A DNA stretch of 58,785 bases, counting the filler, from Jimgerdemannia flammicorona (lineage: Eukaryota), in the NCBI GenBank assembly GCA_003990765.1. It is 3 parts of 3 records of this genome, joined end to end, with 100 filler letters (N's around TTAATTAATTAA, not from the genome) between each part and the next. Parts side by side here need not be neighbours in the genome. Positions count along the whole stretch, not along the records: positions 1 to 19,534 come from RBNJ01001918.1; 2 more parts are not named here. One strand, written 5' to 3'. The notes below the pieces were generated by a model that was given only the letters and a program-made list of their open reading frames with translations, was not told the DNA's origin and did not search any database. How positions within the stretch are numbered: position 1 is the first letter of the stretch; the number at the start of each line of letters is the position of its first letter. The position numbers and the translations under genes are program-made. Of this stretch, positions 1-50,697 are shown in pieces.

Positions 1-149
1 TTTTTACAATCCACACCACGCATTATCCTCTTCTTTTCTCCTATATATTTCTCTCTACATCGCGCGTTTCCGTTCTCATTTCTCCTAAACGTTATTGCCG
101 GCAATTTTCACATTTCCAAAATCATCTCTCCATTTTCAACTTTTCAACG

Positions 150-535
150 TCAACATTACAACGTAAACCCCGTCAAGACAGGTTTACATCCCTTCATAGC
201 ATACTCTTCAACGTCGGACGCCCAACCGTTGTTCCCCGGGACAAGGCGCCGTGCCAAAACAGAGACAAACGACACGATAAAGAACTCCCGTTTATCGTGC
301 GAAAACATCTCCAATGCATTCCACTTGTTCAACACGAATTGGCAGACTTTCATTCGACTATCGCGAGGCAGCCAAAAACGCATCGACGTCGTATATCTGC
401 CAGCTCTCGACACCCTTATGATCATTTTTAACGAAAACTACCCGCCGGACTAGAGCGCAAAAGTGTGGCTCGCAAACAAACTGAATATGACTGCAGATTT
501 GGTTTCAAAACCAGAGGCAAAACGCGCGGAAGTAG
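150..535 (+). pseudogene. Homeodomain transcription factor pseudogene (cassette gene A, best-preserved copy)
   Basis: Joining frames over 366-535 gives RQPKTHRRRIS / LDTLMIIFNENYPPD*SAKVWLANKLNMT / QIWFQNQRQNARK*. This is an N-arm, helices 1-2 and the WFQN helix 3 (tggtttcaaaac at 500-511), with two frameshifts and one in-frame stop. The 5' limit is approximate. Confidence 0.8.
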
Positions 536-1849
536 CAGATTATGCGCAAAGAAAGAACGGCGGTATCCTTTCTCACAGTTCGTTTGATTTTGATAGCAAC
601 AAGACTATTGTCATTACTGAAGCAAGGTTTGGTATGCACGTGTGCGAAAAGGTATATATCGCGATAACCACAAACGCCACCAAGTATGCTGACGACTTTG
701 AGGGCTCCGGGGCTCTAAACACGACCTAATCAGAATTAGCCGAGGATAGGGAACAACGGACGTCGCCGGTTGTGGCACATGTTGTGTAATAGCCAAAATA
801 CTGAAGTGGAGCGGAGAAGAGAGAAAGGAGAGTTGTTTATTGATCATATGTATGTCGCGCTGGCCGATGAGTGGCGTATAATTGATGACGTTTCCGGATT
901 GACGTAAACAGATGTCACGTGCTTACATGTCGAGTTAAAGAAATTGATTTCTCAACAGCGTACATAGAACCTATGGAACATGGTAATAAATCCGAAATAC
1001 CTGCGAGCACGACAACGACCACACGCTCCGACAATATATTAACTATTTTGTCATCACCGAAGCGTAACCTGTAGTGCTTAACAGCGATCCAGCAGCCGCA
1101 ACAGCTTCAGTACATATTCTAATTCCTGTAATCGGCAACATCGGCGTTCCAGACTCCCGTTTTAGTTCTCGACGATGATCTAAGCGCTTCAAAGGTTGTG
1201 ACAGTTACAATGTCAATGACGATGACTCAGACAAAGAGAACTGCCGAAGTATATACTGTTCACCGTCCGGCACACACTAACACAAGCGTCGGCGCACCAT
1301 TCACTCGTACACGACGTCTGCCTCGCCGCTCTCGATTTCCACTAATCACAGAAGCACCACATACCACCCTGCTCCCGGTCTCTCAACCAAACATCATCAT
1401 TTTTATTGTCTTCCAATTTAACAAACATTACGTAGTTCGGCGGTACCCCCAGATCTCTGGTATGTACCATGGCATCACAGATACTCCGGCGCTCGTCATA
1501 ACTGCCACGCCGGCCATGCTCCCGACGACGCTACAACACAAAATTCCGTCACCGCAAGCAGAGATTGATAAAGAATCATTAAAACAAGACTCCAGAAACC
1601 TTAAATTACACTTCCGTCAAAGAATTTGGGCTTGACCGTGTTGAAAAAAGCTGGGCAAGTCAGCACGGGGCGATGAAAGTGGCATATCGTTGAAGGACCT
1701 CAAGGTGCCGTGATATTTGCCGACTCCCGCGGCCCAGAAAGGCTCAGAAGAGAACACGACCAAGGACGATGATGCCTGCAACATAGGTTTTCAAGTTAAT
1801 TCCAATATCGAGGCCGACGCCGAAAACTCCTCAGCCTATTTCTTTATCA

Positions 1850-2300
1850 CTTTTGCCGCAAAGTCCCTGACGTCGCGGGCGCTGCACCTTATGTATCTGC
1901 CAGCTGTCCAAATTGCCTACTATCACATCAAGCTGATCGGATCAACGTTTTGCCTTTTCGTGTTGACCCACCGTTATACTTGTAGATTTTTGTACTGCAT
2001 TTTAACCATAACAAATACGTGTTTATGGTGGTGTCGTTTGCCTCGGTTGTTGACGCAGCTTTGAGAGCGCGCAGCGGCCTGGGGAACGACGTTTGGGCGT
2101 CTAACTTTGAGGAATATATGATGAAGGGATCTTTGTGTTCTAATGTTGCCATTGATGATGAAAACAGGGTGGGGTTTTTGATGTCTGAAAATTGTCAGCA
2201 ATACAGCATGGTGGGGAGAGAAATGCAAAGGAGAAAAGAGAAGGAGGACGTGTGGTGTAGAGAGCAAAAAACCAATTACAAAGCCTGGTTTGAAGCCATT
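1850..2300 (-). pseudogene. Inverted paralog of gene A (5' part; homeobox not recognisable)
   Basis: ORF 1928-2152 DPFIIYSSKLDAQTSFPRPLRA..TEANDT aligns with HPFIAYSSTSDAQPLFPGTRRRAKTETNDT of copy 1. The upstream pyrimidine-rich leader also matches positions 10-60. Confidence 0.65.
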
Positions 2301-2639
2301 GCTAATCTCCAAAATTGAATGACATTTAACCCATTGTTACGTAGCAGTTGGTCAAATGAAACACAATGCAAAGAAAAGTAAAAAAATGGAATATCACTCG
2401 ACAAGTTTATTATAACGGCCAGCAATTTATTAGGTAAACAGATCGATGACGTGACACTCTGATTGTGCTGGGATCATGTGACATTGCGGAAGCGATTTTC
2501 GTTCTCCGCCACCGACCAAGCCCCAAAGGATTTTGTCCCCAGAGCGTTAGTAAAACAACTTATCAACGTGTCTGCTTGCGCGCAAAGCGATGCACGGATA
2601 CTTAGAACCGCTGCTGCGCTAATTTAATCGAATTATTAC

Positions 2640-3290
2640 AGTTTCACCATTTTGCTGAATGCGCATTTTTCACATCGCATAGAAATTGACTTTGACAAAA
2701 CGCTGCATAGTGGGCACCGTAAAAATCTTAGTCCCGTTTATTGATGGAACCGATTGGCGCTAACAGAAGCGTCGGGTTTATTCCGTCTGTGCGAGATGGG
2801 ATTCCGACGTCCGTACCAGCAAACGCTAATACGATTGTGGAAGCCAAATTCTAAACACTCAATGTTGACACGAATCACTGAGTGTTCCGTTCTTCGGGGC
2901 ACGTAAATAGGTACGTCATGCCATGACGCAGCCCTGGGCTACTGCGTCAATCCGCAAAGCCTTATCTTCAGTCCCATTCCGTAGCGACATATATCGGTTC
3001 GGAAAGTGCGAGCTGAAACAAAGACTTCTTCGAGTGGGCGCAACGACATATAGCGGCTCCGAAGAGCCAAAGAATTATGGGGAGGCAGGAGTCATGGGCG
3101 AGCTCGGTACCTGGAGAAACGTACCGGCACTGTTCTCGAAGAATAATGATTTTCCAATTGTAGTTGCTCGTTCCGATAGTTGGGGTTGCGGATGTGTCGC
3201 TTTTCCAAGCCTTTTGCGCGACGATAATTTTTCGTTGTGTTTCTGAGTCTGTGCCGGGGACGAGTTCAATGAGCTTATCCATCAGTTAAT
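2640..3290 (-). pseudogene. Cassette gene B copy 1, degenerate (possible HMG-box)
   Basis: Nucleotide and peptide homology to 8520-9195 (MDKLIELVPGTDSETQRKIIVAQKAWKSD vs LIDELMEFFTDTASQTQGKSIIAQTAWKND), with stops and frameshifts. The paralogy is clear; the HMG identity is tentative. Confidence 0.5.
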
Positions 3291-4260
3291 TATATATATA
3301 TATGTATTAAAAACGTAACCAACGATCTGAGAACAAGTTAAATAAATCAGAGTTGAACTTTTCGAAAACGCAATTTGAGGAATAGCTGTTATTTTGACCC
3401 ATAAACACTGGCAATTAGGCACGGCACCCGAGACCCGTGGCGAATAAAAATAATTGAGCGAAGATCGGCCTTAATTCCTAACATAGAAAAGTAACCCTGA
3501 TCTGAGTTCGAAAGCTTCCGTTTCCAATGACCGCTACTTAAAGCGGATCGATATATTTGCCAGGACAATAATGTACCGATGTGCTTATGCGGAAGGCTGG
3601 AATAGGCCGCTCCAAGCTGTGGGATAAGTGAACCTTATTTCCGCACCGATTCGTTTCAACATCTCAGGAAATTGGCCCTGATATTTCGTTAGCACATTGG
3701 TAATAGCACTAGCATGCAATAACACAGCATCTTTCCGTCCTTCGATCGTCCTCTCGCGTGCAGTGCTAGTTAGAATGATTACCTATGTTGCCCCATTTGA
3801 GTTATTATCTTTTTATTTAAAAAAATAAAATAAAATAAGTCAGCATAAAATTACAATGTATTTTGCAAAATCCATGATGGATCCATACCTAAGGCAAATT
3901 TTTCGAATCTCGTTTTATCTGCAAAGCGACCGTTAGATTTATTCGGAGTGAGCTATTTGTTCATTCACGCCACCCACATATTTCGTTTGCTTTGTTTATC
4001 ATGTAGTGGAACTGATCTGTTGTGGCTCAATGCCCTAATATGTATGGAACCTTCCGCATTCCGACTTTTTGCGAAAGTCTATGTATATACGGACTAAATT
4101 TATGTAATTAATAACCAGTCGACTTCCGACTATAGACTTCGGCTCCGACAATATCCTTCCGCTTCTGAAAGAACGCTGACATGCCCAAAAATTCCCTCTG
4201 AGGTAATATTGACACGACTCCTCAAAATAAAATAATCATATAAGCCATCTCTGGTTATGC

Positions 4261-4350
4261 AAATATAACATTTCTGAATAACTTACGCCACTCGGAAGGC
4301 ACCACAAATCATTTGCAAACCCTAAAGTGTTATAAATACGTACATTACTG
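4261..4350 (+). promoter_or_regulatory. Conserved TATA-containing promoter block of gene C copy 1
   Basis: Near-identical to 10065-10152, including gtgtTATAAATAcgtacatt (TATA at 4331-4338) and cactcggaag. Confidence 0.6.
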
Positions 4351-4598
4351 TGCAACCAAAACCTTTAATAAGACCCGCACATATCCCCTATTACTTTCAA
4401 TTTTCTCATAAACACCAGAACTTTCATATCGTTCACCCAGCGCGCTTTTCGTTTTTTGTCAAAAAGACTAAATAATATCGTCAAACGAATTACCTTGGAA
4501 CGTCTCCAAACATTCCGTGGATAAAATAGTACGTATGAAACGAAACATCGACGCTTTAAATTTGTAAAAAAAAATATGGACAAAAGTCTTGAGAACAG

Positions 4599-5130
4599 TT
4601 GCTATCCTCTTATAAATTTCACGGCAACGAACACCGCTCTTTTAGGATGCCTCCTTGTTTCTCATGGTGTCTTTTCTGCCTGGAGGATGCAATTTGCGAA
4701 GGAGGTCACATAGATACCTCTCAATATCATTCCGCGTCGGAGCATTGTGAAGGGTCTAAAGACTATATCGACATCCCTCCAACAGGTGAATCTCAATTCG
4801 CCTCGGAAGCCTGCGCCGGCAACTTGAGAAATAGCTGCGCAATAAATCAAGCAAAGCCGGAGACAGGTCCAATTTTGCAGCAGCTCCCTGCTAGTCAATC
4901 TCCTAGCGTAAATGTCGCCCTACAACCCCCCACCCCAACCACAGCCACTTTCATTCCTAGATCCGTTCCATACAAGGAATGTCCAGACTGTTTGAGGAAG
5001 AAAAGGCGATGTCGCGTTCACGTTACCGGCAAGAAAACAAAACGGAATACTCCGTTGAATGCAAATTGGACAAGTTAGCACATCGAGAAATGCACTGCAC
5101 ACGTTGTAAACCCTTTTGTATGATTTTCAG
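4599..5130 (+). pseudogene. Zn2Cys6-type protein, frameshifted copy (cassette gene C copy 1)
   Basis: PYKECPDCLRKKRRCRVH matches copy 2. A ~13-nt deletion near 5052 removes the first Cys of the cluster, and the remnant VECKLDKLAHREMHCTRC continues out of frame. Confidence 0.7.
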
Positions 5131-6649
5131 TGTAGAGACGAAGTAAGGCAGTCCTAGATCTCAAACTTAGGGATTATCTCACCAACCTTTCCAGATCCGC
5201 TTTGTCGAAAATAATAATTACTTACTTGCTTGAATTTATAAGTTTTGATACAATAGTATGGCATGTGCAGATTATAAGGTAAAATTCTTCAACTTTATGC
5301 CTATGTAACATATATAAGTCAAATCCATAATTGATTAGTTTGTATACCATGAGATTAAAATTGTACATGGAAATTTTATGTATATCCTTCCTTAACTGAG
5401 TAAAATAAATTCCGAATGACACACAGGAATCTAGTTGAATATGACGCAATCCAATTCCACCCGTATGTAGCATTGGTTGTACGCATTCTCCAAACCACAC
5501 GAACGACTTCCGGATAAATTTTGTGACTTAGCCTTGTCCCCGAGAGATGCCAACCCTTCCTAAGACGTGTATCTCCCGTCCCTCAAATGCCATTGGTGCT
5601 TGACCCACTCCCCACTCATTCTGGTAATGGCAGGAGGCACGTACGTCGGACGAGCAAAGTTGGGTATTGAAGCGAGGAACTGAATTTGCAGGAAAGAAAG
5701 AGAGTGGAGACATGATATAGAGGAGAGGTAGGTACGGGAAGAGATGAGACGAGAATCGACGCTGAACGATAAGCGTAGATCGAAGTGAGCGTGCGCTTGG
5801 AGCCAAAGGCGGGACATGCATACATAAAGAAATAGCGCCGCTCCGGACATAGGAAACGGGCGTAAAATATGCGAATAGTTAGAATCCTTATGCGCTTATT
5901 GAGCGTTGACACCTGATCTGGCGCGCCCATAGAAAATTTCATTAATATCTGTTGTTTGGAAAAGTCTGATATATTTCATGTAATTTCGTTAAACGATTCG
6001 TCGCAACGAAAACTATCAAGCTTCAAAAATGACCCAGTATTCACAGGTTCTTCAGATAGAGCTTTCTTGTCCGCATGTACTCTTTTTTAATCTCGCCAAC
6101 CATCCGTTATTTTTATTTTACATTTATTTATTTAATTGAAGATTATATGACTAATACTATAAACCACCTAAAGGTCGACGTGTAAGCCTATGAAAGGGTT
6201 TTGAGGATACGCATAGAACCGCTCGGCTTGCATATTGCGATTTATAAGGACTTTCGGGCCTCCTGATAGGGATAGCGCGCTAGAGACACGTCATCACTCG
6301 ATTAGGCAATCATATTATAATTAGCATACGTGCAATTCTTTACATTCACAACTTCGAGTTCTCCCCTTATGGTTTCTGCTATTATTTTGTAATAATAATA
6401 ATAATTATAATATTACTCACAAAATCAAATCCAATTCCTCAGTCAACTCTGATTGGCGAACAGAACTTATGACGTGTTCGTTAGAGTGATTGTGACGGGT
6501 TCGGAAGCGACATTCGCTCCCCGCCACCAATGGAATTTTTGTCACCTCGCCGAACGTCACGTGTTCGAGCGTTCGCAAAACAACTTTATGTGTGCGATCA
6601 ACATGTCTGCATACGAAATGCACGGAAATTTAGTAACCCTGCTGCGGGA

Positions 6650-7350
6650 ATTAAATTGGATTATTACGGTAGGGGCGACAATTTTAGCATTTTCTTCGTT
6701 GGCATATCCATTGATAAAAGAAATGGATAGAACAAACGTTGTGATGTAGGAATCGCGAAAATCATCGTCCCGTTCATTGATGGGTTCGATTTATCCTAAC
6801 GGAAATGTCGGATTTATTCCACCTGAGCAAGAAGGAATTCCGACCTTTGAACCAATAAATTAAAATAAACGGTGGACGCCAATTTCAAAACACCAAACAA
6901 ACAGGTACGGGAGCTTTGACACTGGTGGGCGCGTAGCACCGTATCCGGTAGACTGAAACGGTCTGCTGCGGCATCGGGATACGTCAATCGGCACGTCATA
7001 TCATGATGACAACTGTCATATCATAAGTCATTCCGTTACGTGACGATATCTTTCGGTTCAAGAGGTGCGAGTTGGAACGGGGACTTTTTGAAACAATCGT
7101 AACGACATAGCGGGTGACGTGTGAATCAGGGGCGACGGCATTCTGCGAGCAACCAATGTGCATTGTTATCGCCGAATGATATTTGCCGTTAGAATTTGCC
7201 CGTTAAATTATTGGTGCTAGACGATGATACTGCGCCTTTTTACTCAAGAAGTTTGTGCTATCCAATGATGGTTTTTTTTTTTATTTTTTTATTGAGCTTC
7301 CGAGGCTATGTAAGGCACGAGTTCAATGAGCTCATTCATCAGCTGGTTCT
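6650..7350 (-). pseudogene. Cassette gene B copy 2, degenerate
   Basis: QLMNELIELVPYIASEAQ* and MTCRLTYPD are homologous to the other B copies. The flanks 6400-6650 and 7420-7500 also match those copies. Confidence 0.5.
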
Positions 7351-7919
7351 ATAAAACGTTCTTTTTAAATTTAGATAGCACAAAAGAGCTAGAAGGAAAC
7401 TAAATAATACAGAATCAAATATTTCGATGGTCTATTTTGAGGAATAGAAGTCGCTTCCGCAGGTAAGCTGACCCATAAACAAAGGCGTGTAAAAGGCAAT
7501 TAGGGAACCGAAAAATGTGAGAGTGCATGTAAAGAAACCAGCCACGATGTCAATTGTCTATGATGTGGTCGAAATTTACGGTATAGATGCACAAAGCATA
7601 AACCAATCAAAATGTGGCGAACTCGGACACTAATCATCACGCCTATTCGTGCCGTTATCTCTCTCACCCGTGTGTTTGTTTCCCTGACAGTTCTGTAGTA
7701 CAATTGTAATAGAGCTTGCAATATCATCGCTCTTTCTCTCAATCATTCCCATGTGCAGAACTATAGTGCAGGCTTGCCTCATTTTAGGTCTTACAAAATT
7801 TGTGATCGATTCAGACTCAGGATATTAAATACTCGTTTCGGCCGTTGGATTCATTCTGGTGTACCTCTTGACATTATTTTTTTTTTTTAAAAAAAATAAT
7901 AATAAACATTGATTCATGC

Positions 7920-8230
7920 TTCCCATCTAAATTTGCGTGACGGGTGTGGTTATTTTCAGTCAATTTACTAGCCATTCGGTTATGTTCCAGTCTGTGGTTT
8001 TCATGAAGGATGGCGAACACTTGTGTATTAATGAGACGATTCTTTTTTGACTGCCTCGCGATGGTCAGGTCAAACGTTTTGCTGGATTCGTTGAGCCAGC
8101 GGAATACTTTAGAGACGCTTGTGCCATTTTCGACAGCGAAAATCGCGTGTTTAGGGTTCTTTCGTTTGTCATGGTTATTGCCGCGCGCTTTGAGGCGTTT
8201 GGATATCCGATTTTGAATAAATTTAACCCC
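7920..8230 (-). pseudogene. Gene A (homeodomain) paralog, degenerate
   Basis: The minus strand has accatcgcgaggcagtcaaaaaagaatcg, matching actatcgcgaggcagccaaaaacgcatcg of copy 1. It continues through a helix-1/2-homologous stretch to ..TPVTQI* where QIW is expected. Confidence 0.6.
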
Positions 8231-8566
8231 TTGTCAAAGAGTATTTTATATGAGATTTAATCCACCATAACGATGGTAACATATAACACACAAAGAAATA
8301 TAAAAAAAAGGGAATAACACGCGTCGGCCACAGTATTCAAATTATGACGTGAAACCAACGGCACGTGATTTACTGGGTGCGGAAGCGACTTGAAACCCCG
8401 CCTCCAGGCACCCGTTTTCGTGCACTCGCTAACGACTTTATGTGTTTGACCAACGCTACCTCCCTACGAGCAAAGTGAGTATGGGTATTTAGTAGCGCTG
8501 CAACGTAAATAAAATCGGACTATTACGGTTTGGCCATTTTCCTAACACAAAATTTCCCATTGCTTC

Positions 8567-9193
8567 TCACGCATGCCCTATGATAAAAGAGTATTGGCAT
8601 TGAACACTTTCCATTGTTGGCACCCGAAAAATCTTTATCGTGCTGATTGGTGGGATTCGATCTACGCGGGCATGGAATTTGGGTACTGGGATCACGACCG
8701 TATCCCAATTGTAGTAATAACTGTGGGTGGCCCATTTCAAACACCCGAGTGATGGAGATGTTGACAAAAATCGACCGGTAACCCTGTATTCGTATTTGGC
8801 AACCTGGAACGGCCGATCCCGGCTATCGGGGTTTGTTAAACGGTACCTCATGATGGCAGCTTTGGGTGCCTGTGTCAATTCGCAGAACCTTGCTTTTCGT
8901 CCCGTTAAGTTTCGGTTCAGGAACTGCGAGCTAAAAGGAAGACTTCTCGAAATAGGTACGACGCCATATCTTCTCCAAATAGCAAGGAATCTAGGATCAC
9001 ACCATGTGATGGGAGAAGGCGGCGCCGGGCGGAACTGCGGAGAGGCCAACGGGTCATTTTTCTCGCGGAATGATGCTTTCCATTGGAGAACTACGTCATT
9101 TTTCCAAGCCGTCTGCGCAATGATGGATTTTCCTTGCGTTTGCGAGGCTGTGTCAGTGAAGAATTCCATGAGCTCATCAATCAGCTGGTTCAA
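8567..9193 (-). CDS. Cassette gene B copy 3, open 208-codon frame; possible divergent HMG-box protein
   Basis: Only B copy with a long open frame (ORF track starts at TTG; first ATG ~9169). RNLTGRKARFCELTQAPKAAIMRYRLTNPDSRDRP resembles the HMG-box C-half (WxNLxxEEKxxFxELAxxxKxxHxxxYPDYKYRP). The N-half match is poor, and it may be a pseudogene. Confidence 0.35.
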   Translation of the reverse strand: MNQLIDELMEFFTDTASQTQGKSIIAQTAWKNDVVLQWKASFREKNDPLASPQFRPAPPSPITWCDPRFLAIWRRYGVVPISRSLPFSSQFLNRNLTGRKARFCELTQAPKAAIMRYRLTNPDSRDRPFQVAKYEYRVTGRFLSTSPSLGCLKWATHSYYYNWDTVVIPVPKFHARVDRIPPISTIKIFRVPTMESVQCQYSFIIGHA

Positions 9194-10064
9194 TGAAGGA
9201 ATTCTTTTTTACAATTATCAAGCACAAAAGATCCCTGAAGGAAAAGCCTCTATAATTGAACGGCATAAAACCCTCAATTCCAATCAAATATAAGGCAGCT
9301 TTGCTATGCATTCGTGCTTCGAGATGTTTCATTTCCGGGACCGCTGCCTAACGCGGATAGACATTTTGGCAGTGCAGCGATCTAACGATTTACCTCTCGA
9401 AGGCCAGAGTAGGCCGTTCCAAACCGTCAGATAAGTGAAACCCTATGATTTGTATCAACACCTTCCATCCGGGTGCTTCGAAATTGGTCCTGACAGTTCG
9501 TTATGGCAATTGCAATAGCACTCGCTTGCATTATCTTCCCCACTTTGGATCATCTCCATGTGCAGAGCTAGTTAGAGTGATTGTACAGGGTTGCTTCATT
9601 TGAGCTCTTAACATTTCTTTCTAATAGCCAAAATCCAAGATGGATTCAGACCCCAGGAAATATCTTAGAAACTCATTTCGCCTGCGACGCGGGAGCTAAT
9701 TGTAATTTAGAATCACGCTGCACCACATAATACGCAGCTTTGGCAACCATCTAGTGGGCCGCTCCGTTGTGCCTCAGTGCCACTATTTCTATGGAATCTT
9801 CTGAAATCCAACTGTTTTGCGGTGTTCATGCGATTGTAAAAAATCATACTTATAATGACATCCTCCTATGACCTTGGCACAGAAACAGGTTCAAAAACTT
9901 GATAAAATTCCCCCAGTCGTCAGATTCCTGAGTTGTCTACGGGTCCGATACCGAAAATACTTTTAATTTCCATTAAAAGAATGCTACCTTATGCCAAAGT
10001 TCATACGTCTCTTCCACTTTTCTTGACGTTTTTCTTTTAAAACATAATGCGTCACTGGGTTTAT

Positions 10065-10152
10065 AAATATAATATTTCTGAATAACTAACGACACTCGGA
10101 AGAAGCCACTAATCGTTTCCAAGCCCCAAAAGTGTTATAAATACGTACATTC
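10065..10152 (+). promoter_or_regulatory. Conserved TATA-containing promoter block of gene C copy 2
   Basis: Paralogous to 4261-4350; TATAAATA at 10136-10143, ~270 nt upstream of the ATG. Confidence 0.6.
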
Positions 10153-10409
10153 TGTGCATCCAGAACCTTTATGTGTCCCCCGCATCCCCATACTACGCTC
10201 ACTTACATCTCATACACCGAGGATTAATCTCGTTCACAAAACGGCTTTAATTTGTTTTTGTCAAATAGACAAACTAATGTTGTCAAACGCTCCATCTCAA
10301 AAAGCCTCTAAACATTCCGCGGACAAAATCGTACGTACAGAATGGAACCTCGCCTTCTTCAATTTTTGTAAAGCAAAACATACAGCAATTCACACGTCAC
10401 ACTTTCACA

Positions 10410-10922
10410 ATGCCTCGGGAACAGTTATCCTCTAGCAATGCCCCCGACAACGAATTCAGCTCTGATAACATACATCCCTGCGACGACTTCTGTCTCACTT
10501 GCCTAGATCCGCATTCCCCAGGAGGTGACATGGATACCGTTGACGACCATCACACGTCGGCGCCTTGTAATATCCCGCCAACTGCCGCGTTGGAGACCTT
10601 CACCGGCAAATTGTCAAATGGCGACGCAAAGAATCAAGATACGGCAGGGCCAGGGCCAAATTCCCAGCAGTTCGAAGCTAACCTACCATCTTGCCCATCG
10701 CCGAGTTCAACCGCGGCCACTTCTCTCCCTAAGCCCATTCCGTACAAGGATTGTCCAGACTGTTCGAGGAAGAAGAATCGATGCCGCATTCACGCTACCG
10801 TCAAGACGGGAAAACGGAACCCTCCCGGGAGGGTGTGCGTTGAGTGTAAATCGCTTAAGAAAGGATGTCGAGGAATGCCCTGCATACGTTGTGTATACTT
10901 CGATATCAAATGTCACTTATAG
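10410..10922 (+). CDS. Small Zn(II)2Cys6 binuclear-cluster protein, 170 aa (cassette gene C copy 2, intact)
   Basis: ATG-to-stop ORF. The C-terminal CVECKSLKKGCRGMPCIRCVYFDIKC is C-x2-C-x6-C-x4-C-x2-C-x6-C, preceded by CPDCSRKKNRCRIH. Confidence 0.75.
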   Translation: MPREQLSSSNAPDNEFSSDNIHPCDDFCLTCLDPHSPGGDMDTVDDHHTSAPCNIPPTAALETFTGKLSNGDAKNQDTAGPGPNSQQFEANLPSCPSPSSTAATSLPKPIPYKDCPDCSRKKNRCRIHATVKTGKRNPPGRVCVECKSLKKGCRGMPCIRCVYFDIKCHL

Positions 10923-11018
10923 ACCTTACCGCAAATCTTTTAGGGCCAGAAAACTACGATTATTTTTTATGCTTGAATTATATGGTTTAACACAGCAGGA
11001 TGAAATGTATAGATTATG

Positions 11019-11052
<34 letters not shown>

Positions 11053-11299
11053 AATTATATGCAGATGTATTATATATATATTTAATATTTAAGTCAAATC
11101 TATAGTTCATTAGTTTGTATACTATAGACTAAAATACCGAAATTTATATGGCGAAGCTTTATGCCTATGCTTCTTTGACTGAGGGAAGTGGCACCCAAAA
11201 TGCAGTTGAACGTGACTCAATTTCATTCAATCTGTATGGACACTGGTTGTCCGCCAGGGTCTCAAGGTTTTGTCGTGTCATGTGCTTTGCTCCAAATCG

Positions 11300-11420
11300 G
11301 GGTATGCGTTTTAATTTTGCCATTGAAAAGTGACTTGATGTTGAGAGTGGTGGAAGTAATGTTTACGAGAAAAGAGGAGGAGGACGCGTGACATGGAGAG
11401 TAAAGACCCAAATCGCGTAT
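11300..11420 (-). repeat. Remnant of the gene A 5' leader (start of a fourth cassette unit)
   Basis: gagaaaagaggaggaggacgcgtgacatggagag resembles ggagaaaagagaaggaggacgtgtggtgtagagag at 2230-2262. Confidence 0.4.
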
Positions 11421-11968
11421 GCGATCCGGTCAATCACAAATCACATCAGGAAATTTTTTCCTTGTCCGGATCTAGTTCGTCACGAGTTCGCCCAACAATT
11501 ACCCGTTCGCTGACCCGGGCGCCTACTCTCTAACTACGGACTGCACGAACCAGAACCGCCCCAGAACTCTCTCACCGGACCAGAGAGTGCGAACCAGCGC
11601 CAGGACACTTCCGTTATCAGGACTGGATGTAGACGTCACTAACGGTGACGTTATCATTTACAAATATTATACTAAAAATCCTACATTTTCCAATTACTGA
11701 TATGTGTACTTTGCAAATATATTACTATATCATATTGCTATATTATGTCAGTATAATAGATTAGAAAAAGTATATACAATGTTCAGAATAGTATCAGAAG
11801 AATAGAAAGAATATTCAGACTGTGTAAAAGTATATATATTAAAGGAATTATATGTAACTGTATTTTTGAGTAGAGAACAGACATACTGATTATATTAGAT
11901 TTAGATAGTAAGATTAGTCACATAATTGGTCTTACTTTTCTAGATTATATTGAATTTTTTATATATAT

Positions 11969-12800
11969 TGTGGCATGTGATTTGTATGGATTGTTTGTTG
12001 AATTGCATGGCTCAATATTCACTTTAACTGCTATTCGATTTGTTCCCGCTTCTCGCGTCAAGTTGGAGTTCGCGTGTCGTGAGTCGTTGGTCACGTGACT
12101 GAACTTTCGAAATGGCGAAAGGTGAAAGAACATATGTCGCGGATTCTCTATGTTTCTTGGCAGTCTAGCGTATCCTTGGCTAAGTTTCCCGGCGAGTTTC
12201 CTGGGTCTTGTATCCGATTTCTGTGGTGGCTTAACTGACTTGTATCTTGAGTTTTGGCATGATTTTCTGAAGCACCATTACTAAATGTAGCAGTGTTTCC
12301 TGGTCTTGTATCCAATTTTATTGTTCTTGAGTTTCCTGGCAATTGTTTTGTAGGTTCTCTATGTTTTCTGATAGTGTTCTGATAATTTCTGTGGTCTTGT
12401 ATCTTGAGTTTTGGGTCTTGTATCCAATTCTCTATGGCAGCAGTGGTTTGTATCTTGAATTTTGTAACAATTTTTGAGGTGGCAGCAAAATGGCAAGAGT
12501 AATCCTTTAACTCTTGGAGGCAGTGTATTTCTCTGTAAAACCTTTTTACTTCAAACTTCATCTGACTGAGGTTTATTCACTGCAAGTCAAGGGGGTATTT
12601 ATACAAATTTCAGGCTATATATGAGACTATATAATTATTTGTAACTCATAATTACTAGAAGATACTATTTAGTGCACTTTTAGAAATCAAGTGACTAACT
12701 AGCTAGATAAGGCTAATTTTATATTTGTGATGAATTTGGCTAGTTAATAAGTAGTTACTGTTAATATAACTAACTAACTTACTCAAATTTGCCTAATAGA
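11969..12800 (-). mobile_element. Degenerate LTR related to the Gypsy LTR at 15373-16777 (ends approximate)
   Basis: gactgaggtttattcact..ggggtatttatacaa (12563-12606) matches the TATA/AATAAA block at 16402-16446. Internal tandem repeats of tcttgtatc. Confidence 0.5.
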
Positions 12801-12839
12801 GCATTTATATGCAACTTGAAATTCAATGTAACTGGGATT

Positions 12840-13750
12840 ATATCATCCTTATCTTCCTCTTCATTTTCTTCAAAGAGTCTGACCAAATAATTTTCTACAA
12901 TCTCTACAGTTATGCTGAGATTAGTGAAGAGCTCTGTAGATGATAAAAGAGAACTTGTATACTCCTTCAGAAGGTTGTTAAGATCTTCTTCCCATAAAAT
13001 GAGCAGTTCACTCTACTCTGGTTCTTGAGGTCTCCAACCAATAGTATTGTCATTTACAAAGTAGGGTATATCTATGGAATTCTGAGAGTAGTAAACTCTC
13101 AGAGTGGGGTCTTGGAACAATGCAATCAGACCTTGAAGGAACTGATCTGAGTTGGTCTCTAGAATGGGATTTCAAAGGTCTTAAACCTCATCACTCTTGA
13201 CCATAATAGTAGACTGGACTTCTTCTACAACCATTTTTTCAAGATGGTCTATATAGTGGCTTATCAGTTCTTAAATATCTGAAACCTTGATATATTCCAA
13301 GTTGGAGATAGCCCAGGGTACATGCCTGGATATCTGGTGAGCTTTTTTTTGCCAACTTCTGTTTATATCTATCCAGACATATGACATCTATAATCTCTTA
13401 AGAGCTGGTCTGTGAGAAGTCTTGGTAGAGATAATATCCCAATTCATATTCTTGCCATATCTAGAGATACTTAGTGGTAGTAGAGATCAATGTTTCCATT
13501 TCATAGTAGTAGTATTGGTCTCTTATAAAGAGATTCAGGCTTAGAGTTCTTTTTATATACATTCTCATAGCCTTTTTGATATCAGAGAATATCTCATATT
13601 GGGCTAATGGACCTTAGTGGTTCCTTGATCTTACTGTTTGATAAGTGGTAGGTATTTTATTTTATAGTGAGTTTTCTATTTATGAATAATACCTTATACT
13701 CCTTTTTGATAGTTCTTTTATATTCTAAGAGTTTTTTTCTTTCATCTAGA
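12840..13750 (-). pseudogene. Stop-riddled ORF remnant abutting an LTR, unknown protein with acidic C-terminus
   Basis: Minus-strand peptides FLQGLIALFQDPTLRVYYSQNSIDIPYFVNDNTIGWRPQEP and IVENYLVRLFEENEEEDKDD; no pol motifs seen. Confidence 0.35.
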
Positions 13751-15372
13751 GAGTAGAGTCACCTGATTTGGAGTAGTATACTGCTGAGATCACTATGTAT
13801 TACAATGAGTTCAGATGCAGATAATCTTCTGGTCAAGATGAGTCACAGTTGAGTCATAATTTGTAACTAGAGACTTATGACGTCTGAGCAGTCCCTGACT
13901 TCTGATGTCATCAGTTTCAAAGGTGTCATCACAATATATTGATAGAGAAAATAATTTTTAATAAGAATATAAATATTAATATTATAAACTGAATAATAAA
14001 GAATACTTAGCATAGTTAACCCATATAGTTACCTATATATTCTATCAATTTATATAAATAATCAGATATACTTGTCCTCTGAGAGAATGTTTATCTCTTG
14101 AGAGAACAATTATTCTCTGAAAGAACATCTGTCCTCCAAGAGAACAAGTAGTTATATCTTCTCTAAATTAGTCTTATAGTATATTTAATAATTATTCAGA
14201 TATATAGTAACTAGATAGTAACTGAACTTATATAAAATACTCTAGAGATTCAAGTAAAAAAACCTCTATCTGAAAAGTCAAAGAAATATAATAGCCTATT
14301 ATCTGATATATATACTTAGGAGAAATATCTGCTAAAAGTTACTTAATTTAGAAAGAATTACAATACTTAAGATATAGGTCTATATACCAATAAGCTACTT
14401 CTATGAAGTTGTAAACTTTATTTTTTTTCACTTAAGTCTACTTACTAATATAAAGAAGTTCACCAATTTTGGTCTGATTATCAGATTAAGTCTAAAGAGA
14501 AAGTTGTCAAAATTGTTTATATTATACAATAAGAGAACTTAAACCTTTAGAAACTGAAAATTTTATTACTTTTTAACAAAGTAACTAAGGACTCAAGCTA
14601 AGCTACATTGCTGCCTCACATTATAATTTATCTTTATTGAGTCAGTATATTATATTTGAGAAGATTTTAAAATATATATATATAACTTTTTAACTTATAA
14701 AACTCAACACTCAATCTAGAGATTAATATGTACTACTGAAATATTTGATATAGTATTAATTTTTATAACTATAGAAGATAGAATATAATAAAGTATTTAA
14801 ATAGAAAGAGAAGTAATCACCTTAAGATTTAGAAATTACTCACTTTCAGAAGATCTCTATTGTGGAATACTTGGAAGAGTAGAGAGAAGAAGGAGGGTAT
14901 TGTTTATTAATGCTAACTTATACACTTTTATATATATTGATGATATTTATATAATAACATAGTCAGGCTACTATATATCAAGTTGTTATAACTGAGATAT
15001 TATAATACTTCCACTCAATGAGATATATTCCAGAATAGACAAAATATACAAATAAAAGACTAACTAAACACAACCAACTGAATACTATCTAGATGATCAG
15101 AAAAGATCAAAACTCTCTACTTATAAGTATGAAAACAGGTCAAGAATGTAGTGAAAGACTAGTAATATAGATCCAGAATAAAGGATGTAAAAAATGTTAG
15201 AGAAATATATATAAGATACACAGAAATGTAGAGATATATATAAGATATAGTGGAAGACTTTTAGAAGCCAGAAAGGTCCCATAATCTTTATTGAAATACT
15301 TGAATATTGATTATTAGCATATAGTTCCCATTGATATAGAGTTGCTTATTATAAGTCTCATTCCTTATATAT

Positions 15373-16777
15373 TGTAAGTGCCGGCTCAATGGAGGCAAAT
15401 TACAAGGTTTGGGGTTGATGTAGTTTGGCTTGAGCCCCCAGTTACTTTGTCAAAAAGCAACAAAATGTTCTTGGTGTTTAGCAGTATAATAGTCAAGATC
15501 TGGATACTGTGCGAGCGATTTCCTTATTGGGACAGTTCTCTGGGTGTAGCGGCAATTTGTGTGTCTTTTCCTTCTTGGGTCAACTGGGAATGGCAGAATT
15601 TTGTGTATAGCGCGAGCGGTTTCCTTCTTGAGTGACGATCTCTGATTTCTGCATGACGATCTTAGTGCGGCGATCTCTGTGTAGCGCGACGATCTCCTTA
15701 TGCATGATGGTCTGGCAATTTAGTGGTTCTCCTTATGCAGATTTGGTGGATAACTCGATTTGGCTCACTGGGAATATTTGGCGCAGTTTCTTCTATACCG
15801 GGCTCACTGGGAATGACGAATAACTCGAAAGTGGTGGACGATGCAGATTTGGCGGGCTTCTTGAAAACGGCAGCTTAACTGGGAATTAACTTGGATGGTG
15901 CGGATTCTTCCTGAATCGGCAGGGTTCTTCTGGGAAACGGGATGGTGCGGATTCTTCTAAATCGGCGGCTTCAACTGGGAATATGAACTGCTGGCGGCGT
16001 TCTTTTGGGAAAGGGTCTCTTGGCAAAGTTACATCAAAGACTGGCTTCGTTTGCACAGGGTTACATTGTAGACTGGCTCCACTGCGAAGTTGCATCAGAA
16101 ACTGGCTTGAGCAAGGCGGCTTTCTCTTAGGCAGTGGAAAGGTGGAAATCTTCAGGCTTATCTGGCAAGCGAACCAAGGGTTTCTCTTCAAAAAGCGGCG
16201 AAGTTCTTCTTGAACTTAGGTGGCAAGTCTTCAGGCTTATCTGGCAAGCAAACCAATAGTTCCAAAGGCAGCGAAGTTCTTCCTCAAACTTGGCGGCAAA
16301 ATCAGCTTTGTATCGGAAAGTGGACCAGAGTGGAAAGGGGACCGGAGTGGAAAGGGGACCAATGCTCAAACTTTAGAGGCTTGTTTGGTATTTGTATTTC
16401 GGACTGAGGTTTTATTCACTCTTGCCTCTGGGGTAATTTATACAAGTTGGTTGCTATCTGGTTACTATGCGGCTAACTATAGATTTGTTATTTTTGGTAA
16501 TGTTTGGGTGTATCCTCTGGGTACAGGTGTGTCCGCAGGACATGAGTGTGTCCACAGGACATGAGTGTGTCTGCAGGACATGAGTGTGTCTGCCAGACAT
16601 GAGTGTGTCCTCAGGACATAGGTAAACAATCCTGATCTGGTGTCTTGGCTAATTATAAGTGTGGTGGGCATGAGTAACTATGATATACTGGAAGTCACAT
16701 CATGCTGAGTAAGTATACTAATTGTTCGCGTCATTTGGCTAAGTTATAATTCAGGTGGTACGTTTTGGTCTGTTACA
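15373..16777 (-). repeat. 3' LTR, 1405 bp
   Basis: Termini TGTAA...TTACA. TATA and AATAAA near 16410-16445, 20-bp tandem repeats at 16525-16620, and homology to 37712-39162. Confidence 0.9.
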
Positions 16778-16792
16778 TTAGCCCCCACTGAA
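16778..16792 (-). promoter_or_regulatory. Polypurine-tract (PPT)-like plus-strand primer site
   Basis: Minus strand ..ttcagtgggggctaa lies immediately before the LTR start TGTAACA. Confidence 0.6.
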
Positions 16793-16816
16793 GGGTAGTC
16801 TGTCTCAGACTATTCT

Positions 16817-17329
16817 TCAGTCATCATCCCAATAGACATAGGCCACTTCTGCATCTATACCTGTTCCATCATCATCCTCTGAGCTGTGGTCACTCCATTC
16901 CAGGGACTCTTCTTCTTCCTCAGGAAATAGGATCTCCACTTGATGAATAATGCTGAGGTAGGTGGGTTGTGTCATCCTTTGGAGGTCATTCAGGGAAAAC
17001 TGGGCCTGGATTAAGGCAGAAGGATTTCGTTTGTATATTGTGTATAGTCTGTCTGCAGCGGTAGTATTCCTTCTGTTCAGGCCAGTGGTGTTTTGGACAT
17101 AGGCTAGGTCTGGGAGAGGAAGATTTTGCAATTGTTCTCCAATTGCATAATATGCCTATAGCTGGTGGACCTGGAGTAGCCTTTCGGCCAAAGTGAGGTT
17201 CTCTTGATGAACTCAGATTCTCTGAAGATAGGTTCCATTGGGTTCTCTGAACTGAGGCAGGGGAACTGGTAGGGCTTGGAGGGAACTGAGAACAAGAGTT
17301 TGGAGGCGGTTGTCAATTCTCTGATTCAT
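16817..17329 (-). pseudogene. Extra 170-codon ORF between integrase and PPT
   Basis: ATG at 17329 reads MNQRIDNRLQTLV..QRI*VHQENLTLAERLLQVHQL*AYYAIGEQLQNLPLPDL..AADRLYTIY..EEEEESLEWSDHSSEDDD. It is one frame with two stops explicable as CGA>TGA and CAG>TAG. Confidence 0.7.
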
Positions 17330-18392
17330 GGTATGAGAGGAAGTATATCTTGAGGTGATTGATGTGTACTGGTGTTCTCAGGGTTCGTCCATCCATGCTT
17401 CTTAAATAGATGCTGGTTCCTCTGATGTTGTGTACAAGATAAGGTCCTTCCCATTTTGGTTCCAGTTTGGTGGCAAAGTTTGTCTCAATCATGCTTCTCC
17501 AAACTAGGACTTGATCTCCAATCTTGATCTCCTGATCCTTCTGTTTTTGATTATAGTACTTTTTTTGTCTTTTCTGGGCTTTGATAATCTGTCCTTGGGC
17601 TTGATTTCGTAACTGTTCTGCCTTCTTGAGGAGGTCTCCGAGATTCTCATGGTCAGCAGTTCTGGTTTTCTTGGCAAACATCATTTTGAATGGCTTTTGT
17701 TTGGTTGATGTGGCAGGGGTGTTCCGAATTTCCCATAGGATCTCAGGTAAGCAGAGGTCCCAATTAATAGGGTTGACTCAGGCAAGTCCTTTCTTGATAG
17801 TCTGGTTCATTCTTTCTGTCATGCCATTGGTCTGGGGGTGGTATGATGTGGTCCTTTTGAGGTGGATCTTGTGAATTCGGGCATAACTTGTGATTATGTT
17901 GTTGATGAATTCTGAGCCTCGGTCAGAGATGAGTTCTTCTGGAGGTCCATATCTGAGTGTGAGTCCATGGAGGAGACCTACAATGGTTAAGGCATCTGCA
18001 ATTTCCATTGGAAAAGCCTTGGGCCACTTGATCAGATGTTCTACAAATACAAGGATGTATTTGTTTCTTCTTGGTGTAACTGGTAGAGGTCCAATTACGT
18101 CTACTCCCCATCTTTGAAAGATGTGAGTGGGTGGAGGAATCGGTTGCAGAGGGGCTTGATAGTTCTTCTTTCCTTGGTATTTCTGGCAGGTTTCACATTT
18201 CTGAATGATGTCTTGGACTTGAGTTCTGAGGTGGGGCCAATGTTGATATTCTTTTCGAATCCTCTCTTCTATGCTTGTCTGTCCTTGGTGGGCTTTCTGA
18301 TGTTCTTTTCGGATAAGATCTTCTTGTGCTTTGATGGTCTGAGGAGCTTCCTTTAGGGTGTGGTTCCTCGGGACACCCTTCATCTGATTCAT
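17313..18392 (-). pseudogene. Gypsy integrase (disrupted)
   Basis: HHCC finger (HQKAHQG..CETC), WGVDVIGPLP, ISDRGSEF, YHPQTNGMTERMN and LEPKWEGPY. Split over two ORFs, with no chromodomain. Confidence 0.92.
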
Positions 18393-19534
18393 TGGGGCTG
18401 GTGGGAAAGTACATCAACATTGTTGTGGGCTTTCCCTGCTTTGTGAATGATGGTGATTTTGTAATCCTGAAGGATAAGGATCCAGTGGGCTAGAATTCTG
18501 GCAGGTTCCTTGCGGTTGAATAGCCATTTGAGGGCTGCATGGTCTGTAATCAGGGTGAACCTTTTTCTGATGAGGTAATGCTTGAACAGGGTGACCACCC
18601 ATATGACTGCAAGACACTCCAGTTTGGTGCTACCATAGTTTGTCTGCTGCTGATTGGTAGCTCTGCTTGCATAAGCTATCACATGGTGCTGTTGGTCAGG
18701 TCCTTCTTGGGCTAGAACTGCTCCTAGGCCATCTTTGGAAGCATCTGTATACAAGATGAATGGCTTCTGTAGATTGGGGTGTACAAGGATTGGTGCTGTA
18801 GTCATGCGGTTCTTGAGTTCTCTGAAGGCTTTTTCCTGTGATTCTGTCCATTTGAATGTCATTCCTTTCTTGAGAAGGATTCGGATTGGGGCAGCAATTT
18901 GGGCAAAATCCTTGATGAACCTTCTGTAGTAGGATACTAGCATCAGGAATGATAGTGTTTCTTTTGGAGTCTTGGGTACTGGCCAATTGTTGATCTTCTC
19001 AGTTTTCTTTGGGTCTGCATGAGTTCCTTCTTTTGAGACCACAAATCCTAGGAATTCGAGTTTCTGTTTTCCAAAGTAGCATTTCTTTGCATTCAGTCTC
19101 AAGTGATTCTTGTGGGTGAGCTTGAAGAATTCCTCTAGGTAGTGCAGGTGTTCTTCGAAATTTGCTGAGTAGATGTTGGAATCATCTATGTATACAATCA
19201 GGCAGTAGTGGATCAAGGGAGCATAGACTGAATTCATCATCCTCTGGAAGGTGGGGGGTGCATTGCAAAGTCCAAAGGGCATTCGGAGGTATTCAAACAG
19301 TTTCCCTAGAGCAAGGAAAGCTGTCTTTTGAATGTCCTTGGGGTCCATGGGGATCTCATGGAATCCTGCGAAGAGGTCCATACTGCTGAAGTATCTGGCA
19401 TCTTGTAACTGGTCCAAAAGGTCATCGATTCTGGGCAAAGGATAAGCATCCTTTTCAGTGACTGAGTTGAGTTTTCTGTAATCCACGCAGAGTCTCCATC
19501 CTCCTTTCTTTGGTACAATAAGTATAGGGCTGGC
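18389..19534 (-). CDS. Gypsy reverse transcriptase-RNase H (partial pol)
   Basis: DYRKLN, YPLPRIDDLL, MPFGLCNAP, YIDD, LYTDAS and LITDHAAL motifs. Confidence 0.95.
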   Translation of the reverse strand, partial: ASPILIVPKKGGWRLCVDYRKLNSVTEKDAYPLPRIDDLLDQLQDARYFSSMDLFAGFHEIPMDPKDIQKTAFLALGKLFEYLRMPFGLCNAPPTFQRMMNSVYAPLIHYCLIVYIDDSNIYSANFEEHLHYLEEFFKLTHKNHLRLNAKKCYFGKQKLEFLGFVVSKEGTHADPKKTEKINNWPVPKTPKETLSFLMLVSYYRRFIKDFAQIAAPIRILLKKGMTFKWTESQEKAFRELKNRMTTAPILVHPNLQKPFILYTDASKDGLGAVLAQEGPDQQHHVIAYASRATNQQQTNYGSTKLECLAVIWVVTLFKHYLIRKRFTLITDHAALKWLFNRKEPARILAHWILILQDYKITIIHKAGKAHNNVDVLSHQPQ

Positions 19535-19634
19535 NNNNNNNNNNNNNNNNNNNNNNNNNNNNNNNNNNNNNNNNNNNNTTAATTAATTAANNNNNNNNNN
19601 NNNNNNNNNNNNNNNNNNNNNNNNNNNNNNNNNN
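19535..19634. other. Artificial scaffold spacer
   Basis: N44-TTAATTAATTAA-N44, giving stops in all six frames. Confidence 0.95.
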
Positions 19635-27300: not shown

Positions 27301-27400
27301 TCTGGGAGGTATTTCACTTGCTGAGTTTGATATTAGTGATAGAGTAGAATGTCAGTGGGGACTTGGACAGAATCTATGACCAAGTAGTTAGCAGGTAGTA
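24400..27400 (+). pseudogene. LINE ORF2: AP endonuclease plus reverse transcriptase, many stops
   Basis: SLNVNGL (~24420), GGDFN (~24800), SDH (~25070), APGENGL, FLDQKKAYD, VPQGDPLSP (~26385), FIDD (~26505) and YLG. Confidence 0.92.
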
Positions 27401-28146
27401 GATTGGTAAGGAGTGGAACTGAGCAGGAGTCTGGTCATAGAGTGCTGAGGTACAGAGGTGGCTTCCTCCCAAGTTCTGAGTAGTATAGTAGAGGATGCTG
27501 TGGAGGAATGTTATATTGAATTTCCATGCTGGGTATCTGGTGGATGGTGGTCAATTAGATTGTGAGGAGTATTATAATATTGAGCAAGTTGGGGGATTTA
27601 TGTAGATGTCAGAACATTGGCTAGAAGAGTGTGAGATTCTGGAGGACTTTTGGATTGCAGTAGGGGCCTGGTTGGGTGTAGAGAGGAGGCCAGATGGAGA
27701 GAGAGGGTGCTGGGAGGATCTGAAATCTAGATTAGTAAGAGGTGTGGGCAATGGATGGCTTACTGCAGGGTGAGTTTTAGCTGTATAGATAGGGCTAGCT
27801 AGATATTAGCTCTTTATTTTTGAGGAAAGGTGGTAGTTAGGTATATAGAAGAAGTTATTGAGATGAGAGGGGTTGATGGAAGATCTATTGACTGAGTAGT
27901 GGGTTGGTTGGGATTAGTGCTCTCAAATGAATCAAATATATTCGAATCAAATCAAATTGAGATTGATTTGAATTGAATGGAAATGGGGATTTTTATATTT
28001 GAATTGAATTTGAATCAAATCAAATTTGAATCAAATTGGAGGTTTGATTTGATTTGATACGAATCGAATTGGGGGTTTGATTTGATTTGATATAAATCAA
28101 ATTAGAAGTTTGATTGAGGGTCTCAATTTGTCACACATAATATATG

Positions 28147-50587: not shown

Positions 50588-50694
<107 letters not shown>

Positions 50695-50697
50695 TAT

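Follow-up and report, generated by a model that had tools for sequence, protein, structure and literature searches.

Probable birth and death of a duplicated cassette of small regulator genes, among them a zinc-cluster gene and homeodomain pseudogenes, in Jimgerdemannia flammicorona

The stretch of DNA analysed here, 58,785 nt long and referred to below as the window, joins three parts of three Jimgerdemannia flammicorona records; positions 1–19,534 come from RBNJ01001918.1, and all coordinates are positions in the window. Its left end carries an array of three segments that recur together, A and B on the minus strand and C on the plus strand. With nhmmer profiles, A is found at 1–620 (+), 2303–1661 (−) and 8419–7863 (−), with a stub at 11414–11351 (−); B is found at 3420–2418, 7480–6441 and 9319–8337, all on the minus strand; and C is found at 4198–5498 (+) and 10001–11269 (+). 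The copies fall into unit 1 (about 1660–5500; A1, B1 and C1), unit 2 (5500–7860; B2) and unit 3 (about 7860–11270; A3, B3 and C3), preceded at the left edge of the window by an inverted copy of A (A0) and followed by the stub of a fourth unit. The original prediction, made from the sequence alone, had proposed this repeated unit, its coordinates, the stub and the inverted A, and self-blastn and the nhmmer profiles bear it out.

Units 1 and 3 are collinear at about 62–65% identity, with blastn E values down to 5e-52, and their global alignment gives 61.5% identity over 3146 aligned columns. In a self-blastn of positions 1–13,000, the region 4240–5107 matches 10044–10892 (64.9% over 910 nt, E 4.6e-52), 3529–3813 matches 9339–9616 (E 3.8e-15) and 3201–3285 matches 9100–9184 (76.5%), with further matches between 2894–3029 and 8826–8947, 3866–4073 and 9629–9821, and 5310–5484 and 11085–11254. 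The matches of unit 2 are confined to its B part: 6567–6893 pairs with 2542–2858 (E 2e-18), 7282–7353 with 3225–3296, and 7286–7399 with 9128–9244. Neither self-blastn nor the profiles detect a copy of A or C in this unit, which had been predicted to lack C and to have an unclear A. The inverted A is visible in the matches of 1–55 to 2270–2216, 188–240 to 2130–2078 and 356–385 to 8066–8037. The stub (11351–11414, minus strand, nhmmer E 1.1e-4) retains solely the CT-rich block found ahead of gene A, and its positions 11367–11411 match 2231–2275 at 80% over 45 nt.

To the right of the stub lies AT-rich, repeat-rich DNA with Gypsy remnants and satellites, and no further copy of A, B or C was found elsewhere in the 58.8-kb window by sequence and nhmmer profile searches. 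A larger "super-unit" duplication, pairing 5484–6440 with 11254–13000, was considered and rejected, the similarity not being significant. The open reading frames (ORFs) of C1 and C3 differ by a p-distance of 0.316 (Jukes-Cantor K 0.41), which makes the duplication an old one. Searches for structured RNAs gave no match, either in Rfam (E≤0.1, positions 1–12,500) or with ARAGORN over the whole window. Within unit 2, all three minus-strand frames of 5531–5975 are open for about 110–120 codons; this pyrimidine-rich stretch has a composition like that of the CT-rich block preceding gene A, without significant sequence similarity to it.

The best preserved gene of the array is C3 (10410–10922, plus strand), an intact intronless gene of 170 codons with a Cys-containing acidic and low-complexity N-terminal region and two C-terminal zinc modules: a C-x2-C-x6-C-x2-H knuckle at residues 115–128, then a Zn2Cys6-type cluster running from C143 to C168. 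Its counterpart C1 (4599–5146, plus strand) is a pseudogene of the same zinc bi-module: it has no ATG, a 13-nt frameshifting gap separates the first zinc module from the second, and the third Cys of the cluster is lost. The claim that C carries a Zn2Cys6 cluster thus holds for C3 and fails for C1. In tblastn, C3 matches C1 in one frame at 41.6% over 154 amino acids (E 4e-23). That stretch contains five indels whose lengths are all divisible by three (3, 3, 21, 12 and 15 nt), for which the chance is about (1/3)^5 = 0.004, and the sixth indel is the 13-nt frameshift. We conclude from the five in-frame indels that both genes remained protein-coding through much of the time over which they diverged. 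When neutral substitution is simulated for half of K, only 2.5% of 5000 copies retain both their ATG and an uninterrupted reading frame, a figure that is an upper bound as the simulation contains no indels. This low survival speaks for selection having preserved C3, which we regard as probable.

No self-match and no relative of near length was found for C3 in a word-indexed search of 5.8 billion proteins. Being absent from that collection, C3 has been missed by annotation; the suggestion that ORF calling overlooks the cassette is correct for this gene, intact as it is. An exhaustive phmmer search of 1.84 billion representatives returned 11 matches at E≤1e-3, with a best E value of 2.5e-9. For ten of them the best-matching stretch spans the two zinc modules, and for the eleventh (query residues 68–138) it spans the first module only. 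Ten relatives were looked up: seven are proteins of Jimgerdemannia flammicorona or Endogone sp., three are unnamed environmental sequences, and several of the relatives are named Zn(2)-C6 domain proteins in UniRef. The family alignment defines a bi-module with a C-x2-C-x6-C-x2-H knuckle, about 14 intervening residues and a C-x2-C-x6-C-x4-C-x2-C-x6-C cluster, and C3 lacks none of the residues that are invariant or nearly so in its zinc modules, which is also in keeping with selection on C3. An alignment of five C sequences gave 213 pattern matches in metagenome contigs, none of which was confirmed.

The canonical Zn2Cys6 pattern is C-x2-C-x6-C-x5-12-C-x2-C-x6-8-C. The six Cys of C3 are spaced by 2, 6, 4, 2 and 6 residues, so that the middle loop is one residue below the minimum of this pattern. 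Among the 11 relatives, two pass the Pfam Zn_clus cutoff (21.2 and 23.7 bits), two are sub-threshold and seven have no match at E≤0.1. In the ESM Atlas, C3 gives weak Zn_clus leads (0.79 and 0.78). All five matches of the family profile in the PDB at E≤1 are Zn2Cys6 structures, with PUT3 at E 2.2e-3. An AlphaFold2 (AF2) model of C3 built with an alignment is confident only over residues 111–170 (predicted local distance difference test, pLDDT, 73–84), where short helices follow each CxxC. With this model as query, all Foldseek matches listed are Zn2Cys6 DNA-binding domains at weak E values (0.48–9.7), the top nine superposing with a root-mean-square deviation (rmsd) of 1.1–1.8 Å over about 30 columns, and VIA-align, run over 48,161 chains, finds a single one with Z≥2, Pho7 (Z 2.1, rmsd 1.5 Å, 36 aligned). 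The profile, Foldseek and VIA-align lines are each weak alone for a Zn2Cys6 identity, yet they agree. Together with the Pfam results and UniRef names of the relatives and the AF2 model, they lead us to regard C as a divergent Zn2Cys6 gene.

C3 is therefore like the fungal Zn(II)2Cys6 domain of Gal4, PUT3, Pho7 and LAC9 in the order of its six Cys and in its profile and fold matches. It differs from it in scoring below the Pfam cutoff, in a middle loop one residue shorter than that of PUT3, in the conserved C-x2-C-x6-C-x2-H knuckle ahead of the cluster, and in the position of the cluster at the very C-terminus of 170 residues, where neither a linker nor a coiled coil nor a regulatory domain follows. 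Closer to hand are the Endogonales zinc bi-module proteins RUP49734.1, RUP43547.1 and RUS32295.1 (Jimgerdemannia flammicorona) and RUS15077.1 (Endogone sp. FLAS-F59071), which have the CCCH knuckle and Zn2Cys6 cluster in common with C3 at 34–50% identity over about 65–115 residues. In these proteins of 122–531 amino acids the module lies near the N-terminus and long tails follow, whereas in C3 the module ends the protein; with a best E of 2.5e-9, none of them is a close orthologue of C3. As far as its sequences tell, the C family, which is unstudied, has named members that are all Endogonales proteins, to which C3 adds an intact member absent from the protein collection searched.

Upstream of C1, a block at 4240–4560 (plus strand) matches 10044–10372 upstream of C3. 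It contains the best-conserved stretch of the whole unit, 4275–4375 against 10079–10180 (82 of 100 columns), which is non-coding and holds an identical 23-nt stretch with a TATAAATA motif. We suggest that this best-conserved stretch is the core promoter of C. Downstream, a run of about 31 A (11019–11049) begins about 100 nt past the C3 stop and is absent from the collinear place in unit 1; it looks like a local microsatellite expansion. Retroposition of C3, which such a run might suggest, was rejected, the run being an expansion inside sequence collinear with unit 1. Repeat-induced point (RIP)-like mutation was likewise rejected as a source of the divergence, with 191 transitions against 188 transversions between C1 and C3 and no excess of C-to-T changes.

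Segment A is represented by three broken copies, each preceded by a CT-rich block. The inverted copy A0 (1–620, plus strand; nhmmer A profile E 5.6e-147) is cut by the left edge of the window and consists of a CT-rich, promoter-like block (1–150) and a homeodomain remnant at about 361–532, with a stop at 533–535 directly after the homeodomain. The remnant is interrupted by an in-frame TAG (451–453) and a frameshift at about 490–493, which leave the homeodomain spread over two frames. Helix 3 of the homeodomain carries the motif W-F-x-N-x-R, with Asn51 and Arg53. This motif is present in A0 (QIWFQNQRQNARK at about 494–532) and missing from A1 and A3; when the whole window is translated in six frames, WFQN turns up a single time, at about 500 (+), in A0.

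The region 1–11,600 has 153 stop-to-stop ORFs of 40 codons or more. The Pfam scan of the array covered 150 of them, the last three, beyond 11,476, being left out, and no single uninterrupted ORF among the 150 matched Homeodomain at E≤1. When A0 is translated from 229 to 532 with an X at the stop and another at the frameshift, the read-through matches Homeodomain (PF00046) at E 5.1e-5 over profile positions 12–57, a borderline result at 23.4 bits against a cutoff of 22.9. In the PDB (phmmer, E≤1), 25 of its 26 matches are homeodomain-containing, the best being the DUX4 homeodomain (E 1.2e-3), and the remaining one is a PR-domain zinc-finger protein (E 0.3). The word-indexed search of 5.8 billion proteins found no relatives of near length for the read-through. 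The HMMER alignment has a 4-residue gap before helix 3, and the spacing from an F-x-x-N-x-Y-P-like block to W48 in A0 appears to fit a typical 60-residue homeodomain rather than one of the three-amino-acid loop extension (TALE) class.

The other two copies have decayed further. A1 (1661–2303, minus strand) keeps an ATG at 2152 and a 74-codon N-terminal ORF (1928–2152), and its homeodomain part is unrecognisable; the frame-1 translation of A0 matches it at 33% over 103 amino acids (E 9e-5). In the heavily decayed A3 (7863–8419, minus strand) the start of the homeodomain, SRGSQKRI, can still be read; beyond it come stops and frameshifts, and WFQN is gone. The TAG of A0 aligns with non-stop codons in A1 and A3, making the lesions private, and since they differ between copies we conclude that the copies of A decayed independently after duplication. 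On this comparison, A is by origin a small homeodomain gene, of which the window holds three dead copies. The "clear WFQN homeodomain" of the original prediction is therefore upheld in that A0, when read through, passes the Pfam model, and needs amending in that the motif is confined to A0, A0 is itself broken, and A1 and A3 have lost it.

For segment B, a weak resemblance to an HMG box had been proposed, and this finds no support. The array ORF scan gave no HMG_box or other Pfam family for B at E≤1, and neither the longest B ORF nor the ORF antisense to it has a Pfam match or a PDB sequence match at E≤10. The observation that B has no HMG or other transcription-factor similarity is one that the original prediction had itself named as speaking, together with a scatter of intact homologues elsewhere, for a chance segmental duplication. 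The longest ORF, in B3 (8567–9193, minus strand), has 208 codons from a TTG and 200 from the first ATG (9169), and is overlapped by an antisense ORF of 188 codons (8727–9293, plus strand). B1 (2418–3420, minus strand) likewise has ORFs on both strands, one of 104 amino acids at 2968–3282 (−) and one of 107 at 2923–3246 (+), and is frameshifted relative to the B3 ORF; B2 (6441–7480, minus strand) has a stop 16 codons after a conserved ATG. B3 no longer has that ATG, which B1 and B2 have in common.

Peptide blocks that B1 and B2 conserve all lie in the single frame of B3, and the N-terminal 32 residues of B1 and B3 are 53% identical; the lengths of the indels that separate B1 from B3 are not divisible by three. 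From 300 local Markov shuffles, the expected number of ORFs is 0.97 at 150 codons or more (7 observed) and 0.077 at 200 codons or more (2 observed), and the longest ORF reaches at least 200 codons in 7% of shuffles. At one time B was probably a coding segment. Trained on seven window ORFs, a codon-usage model failed to separate strand or frame for B3 and is uninformative. No relatives of near length were found for B3 in the word-indexed search of 5.8 billion proteins, and its 90 pattern matches in metagenome contigs yielded no confirmed one. The ESM Atlas gives no lead, with a best score of 0.79 and a recognition value of 1181, on a scale where 2300 is reached by 91 of 100 known-family proteins and by only 9 of 100 proteins after shuffling or reversal. 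Modelled by AF2 from its sequence alone, B3 gives a structure (mean pLDDT 33.4, without helices) that is too poor to judge any fold, for or against.

An inverted repeat, 8706–8772 with 9447–9512, encloses a stretch of about 680 bp to which the 5' two-thirds of the B3 ORF belong. Its arms align locally with a score of 37, where 200 shuffles scored no higher than 25, and a 15-nt core of it is kept in unit 1 (2862–2876 and 3648–3662). The B profile also has matches in inverted orientation at 9379–9497 (E 5e-9) and 3568–3675 (E 8e-6). The repeat may be a foldback relic, one like a miniature inverted-repeat transposable element (MITE), or a regulatory palindrome.

Taken together, these features point to a rather ordinary case of birth and death of genes: the array is likely to be what remains of an old local duplication of a cassette of small regulators, now mostly dead. 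We favour this reading because the evidence fits local multiplication followed by copy-by-copy pseudogenisation, and the original prediction that three unrelated segments travel as one unit under birth and death, with most copies decayed, agrees with the collinear copies and their private lesions. The ancestral cassette would have measured about 3.3–3.8 kb. Its A gene would have been small and intronless, of about 140–150 codons, with a CT-rich promoter block and a homeodomain of the typical class (Q50) at the very C-terminus of its product. B would have lain directly upstream of A on the same strand and may have encoded an orphan protein with no detectable family, and C, divergent from B, would have been a small intronless gene ending in the CCCH zinc knuckle and a divergent Zn2Cys6 cluster. 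Most likely by unequal recombination, the cassette would then have multiplied into tandem copies and one inverted copy at what is now the left edge of the window.

Redundant copies would subsequently have decayed independently: A0, A1 and A3 through different stops and frameshifts, C1 through loss of its start codon, frame and a zinc ligand, unit 2 through loss of A and C, and unit 4 through truncation to a stub beside repeat-rich DNA. C3 is the sole copy clearly intact, with B3 perhaps alive. The product of C3 is most likely a short zinc-cluster DNA-binding regulator with little beyond its DNA-binding domain.

Several observations weigh against this reading. Differences between C1 and C3 are spread over codon positions as 48/166, 57/165 and 52/166, with no third-position excess, and differences among B1, B2 and B3 are equally flat; lacking such an excess, the comparison of paralogues does not directly reveal purifying selection. 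The part of the unit that is conserved best is non-coding. The Homeodomain score of A0 exceeds the cutoff by only 0.5 bit, and does so only after two breaks have been read through. C3 itself fails the Pfam Zn_clus (PF00172) cutoff, with 11.3 bits against 21 (E 0.4) and a Cys3–Cys4 loop of four residues. Finally, if B is non-coding, the 208-codon ORF of B3 is left unexplained.

The original prediction saw in the array a mating-type-like module. In full, this would make the cassette, now or formerly, a mating-type-like or cell-identity locus in which A sets compatibility together with its partners B and C, the copies being alleles or paralogues under balancing selection. In its favour, A descends from a genuine homeodomain gene, as the Pfam match of the A0 read-through indicates, and it travels with a DNA-binding gene, C, on the opposite strand; moreover, the copies of the array are very diverged, as alleles of a mating-type (MAT) locus can be. 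Homeodomain (HD) pairs specify mating type in Basidiomycota, and the Mucoralean sex locus places a SexP/SexM HMG gene between a triose-phosphate transporter and an RNA helicase. The review PMC10386755 describes a candidate MAT locus with two HD-like genes in Rhizophagus, a relative within Mucoromycota, and states that Mucoromycota outside the arbuscular mycorrhizal fungi rely on HMG proteins for sex determination. With the HD mating-type loci, that is, basidiomycete HD1/HD2 and the candidate MAT of Rhizophagus irregularis (the latter again from PMC10386755), the array has in common a homeodomain gene next to a divergent second DNA-binding gene, in a Mucoromycota lineage. Unlike them, it has a single homeodomain class, all of whose copies are broken, with no TALE/HD1 partner among the 150 ORFs scanned; the partner is a zinc-cluster gene, and the copies are tandem paralogues on one molecule, not alternative alleles. 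With the Mucoralean sex locus it shares the phylum only, there being no HMG box in the 150 ORFs, B included. Nor do sex-locus flank genes appear: the 13 larger ORFs of 12–56 kb, in which Pfam recognises a Gypsy integrase, DUF3712 and a weak Npa1 match, include no triose-phosphate transporter and no RNA helicase, in a scan that short-exon spliced genes could escape. Our literature searches turned up no paper that deals with MAT loci or transcription-factor loci in Endogonales, and we met no locus comparable to this array in PMC10386755. The mating-type proposal is thus unsupported, and we put its chances close to negligible. It is also very doubtful, to a slightly lesser degree, that the cassette is left over from an identity or compatibility module peculiar to Endogonales, in which a miniature homeodomain protein, a zinc-cluster protein consisting of little but its DNA-binding domain and the orphan partner B would have acted together, and of which intact linked copies might survive elsewhere. 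If true, this would be a pairing of HD and Zn2Cys6 regulators undescribed for any fungal MAT or developmental locus.

Two other accounts concern the mode of spread and the state of unit 3. The cassette could belong to a mobile or foldback element, as cargo or as a component, with A, B and C being captured host gene fragments spread locally by transposition instead of unequal recombination and B a small relic with terminal inverted repeats. The inverted repeat that flanks most of the B3 ORF, the core of it kept in unit 1 and the inverted matches of the B profile are in keeping with this, as are the Gypsy remnants and satellites that the array abuts and the large, transposable element (TE)-rich genomes of Endogonales that are reported in PMC10386755. 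Yet the 150 array ORFs scanned have no similarity to transposases, integrases or reverse transcriptases, the Gypsy element of the window has no match to C3, and A, B and C have no copies in the window beyond the array. The copies are also collinear, adjacent and about equally diverged, as an old tandem duplication predicts, and we judge spread by a mobile element to be quite improbable. Less remote, while still unlikely in our view, is the idea that unit 3 is a working two-gene module, with B3 a real lineage-specific orphan gene that is divergent from C3 and co-regulated with it through their shared intergenic region of about 1.2 kb. This would account for the 208-codon ORF, of a length rarely reached in the shuffles, and for the peptide blocks and N-terminal identity that B1 and B2 preserve in the B3 frame. 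It has to contend with the absence of relatives among the proteins and metagenome contigs searched, the low ESM Atlas recognition value and pLDDT, the out-of-frame indels between B1 and B3 and the flat codon-position pattern, the antisense ORF of equal length, with ORFs on both strands in B1 too, and the loss from B3 of the ATG that B1 and B2 conserve.

If birth and death is the right reading, the locus shows small regulator genes, including a miniature homeodomain gene, multiplying by local duplication together with their neighbours and then dying. Its value lies mostly in a clean negative, in that a mating-type-like candidate, from a mycorrhizal lineage that is unculturable and little known, is probably a decaying segmental duplication. 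The array is also useful background for the annotation of TE-rich Endogonales genomes of about 240 Mb.

Elsewhere in the window, a remnant of a Ty3/gypsy reverse transcriptase–RNaseH–integrase region (17313–19582, minus strand) is split over three ORFs, one of which runs into a stretch of N, with matches to Integrase_H2C2, rve and zf-H2C2. Adjoining Gypsy remnants, 22001–28000 has a very strong GC skew of +0.41 to +0.50, the plus strand being G-rich and C-poor. An ORF of 203 codons at 28346–28957 (minus strand) encodes tandem "AIITIQDDK/VIITIQDN" repeats and a Cys-containing C-terminal end, and belongs to no Pfam family. A minisatellite with a 9-nt period (32620–33662) is open in all three plus-strand frames and yields ORFs of 318–342 codons of the "LPVLPILP/CPSC" type, which makes it prone to producing artefacts in gene calling, and an array with a 14-nt period (36427–37614) lies inside a higher-order repeat of about 837 bp, present as two blocks that are 85% identical. 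An uninterrupted ORF of 456 codons (39833–41203, plus strand) has no Pfam family at E≤0.01. The window also holds a multi-exon gene that is weakly Npa1/URB1-like and a DUF3712 gene of 1470 codons (50698–55110, minus strand), whose 3' end adjoins a run of more than 100 A (50590–50700) encoding about 40 Lys in a plus-frame ORF.

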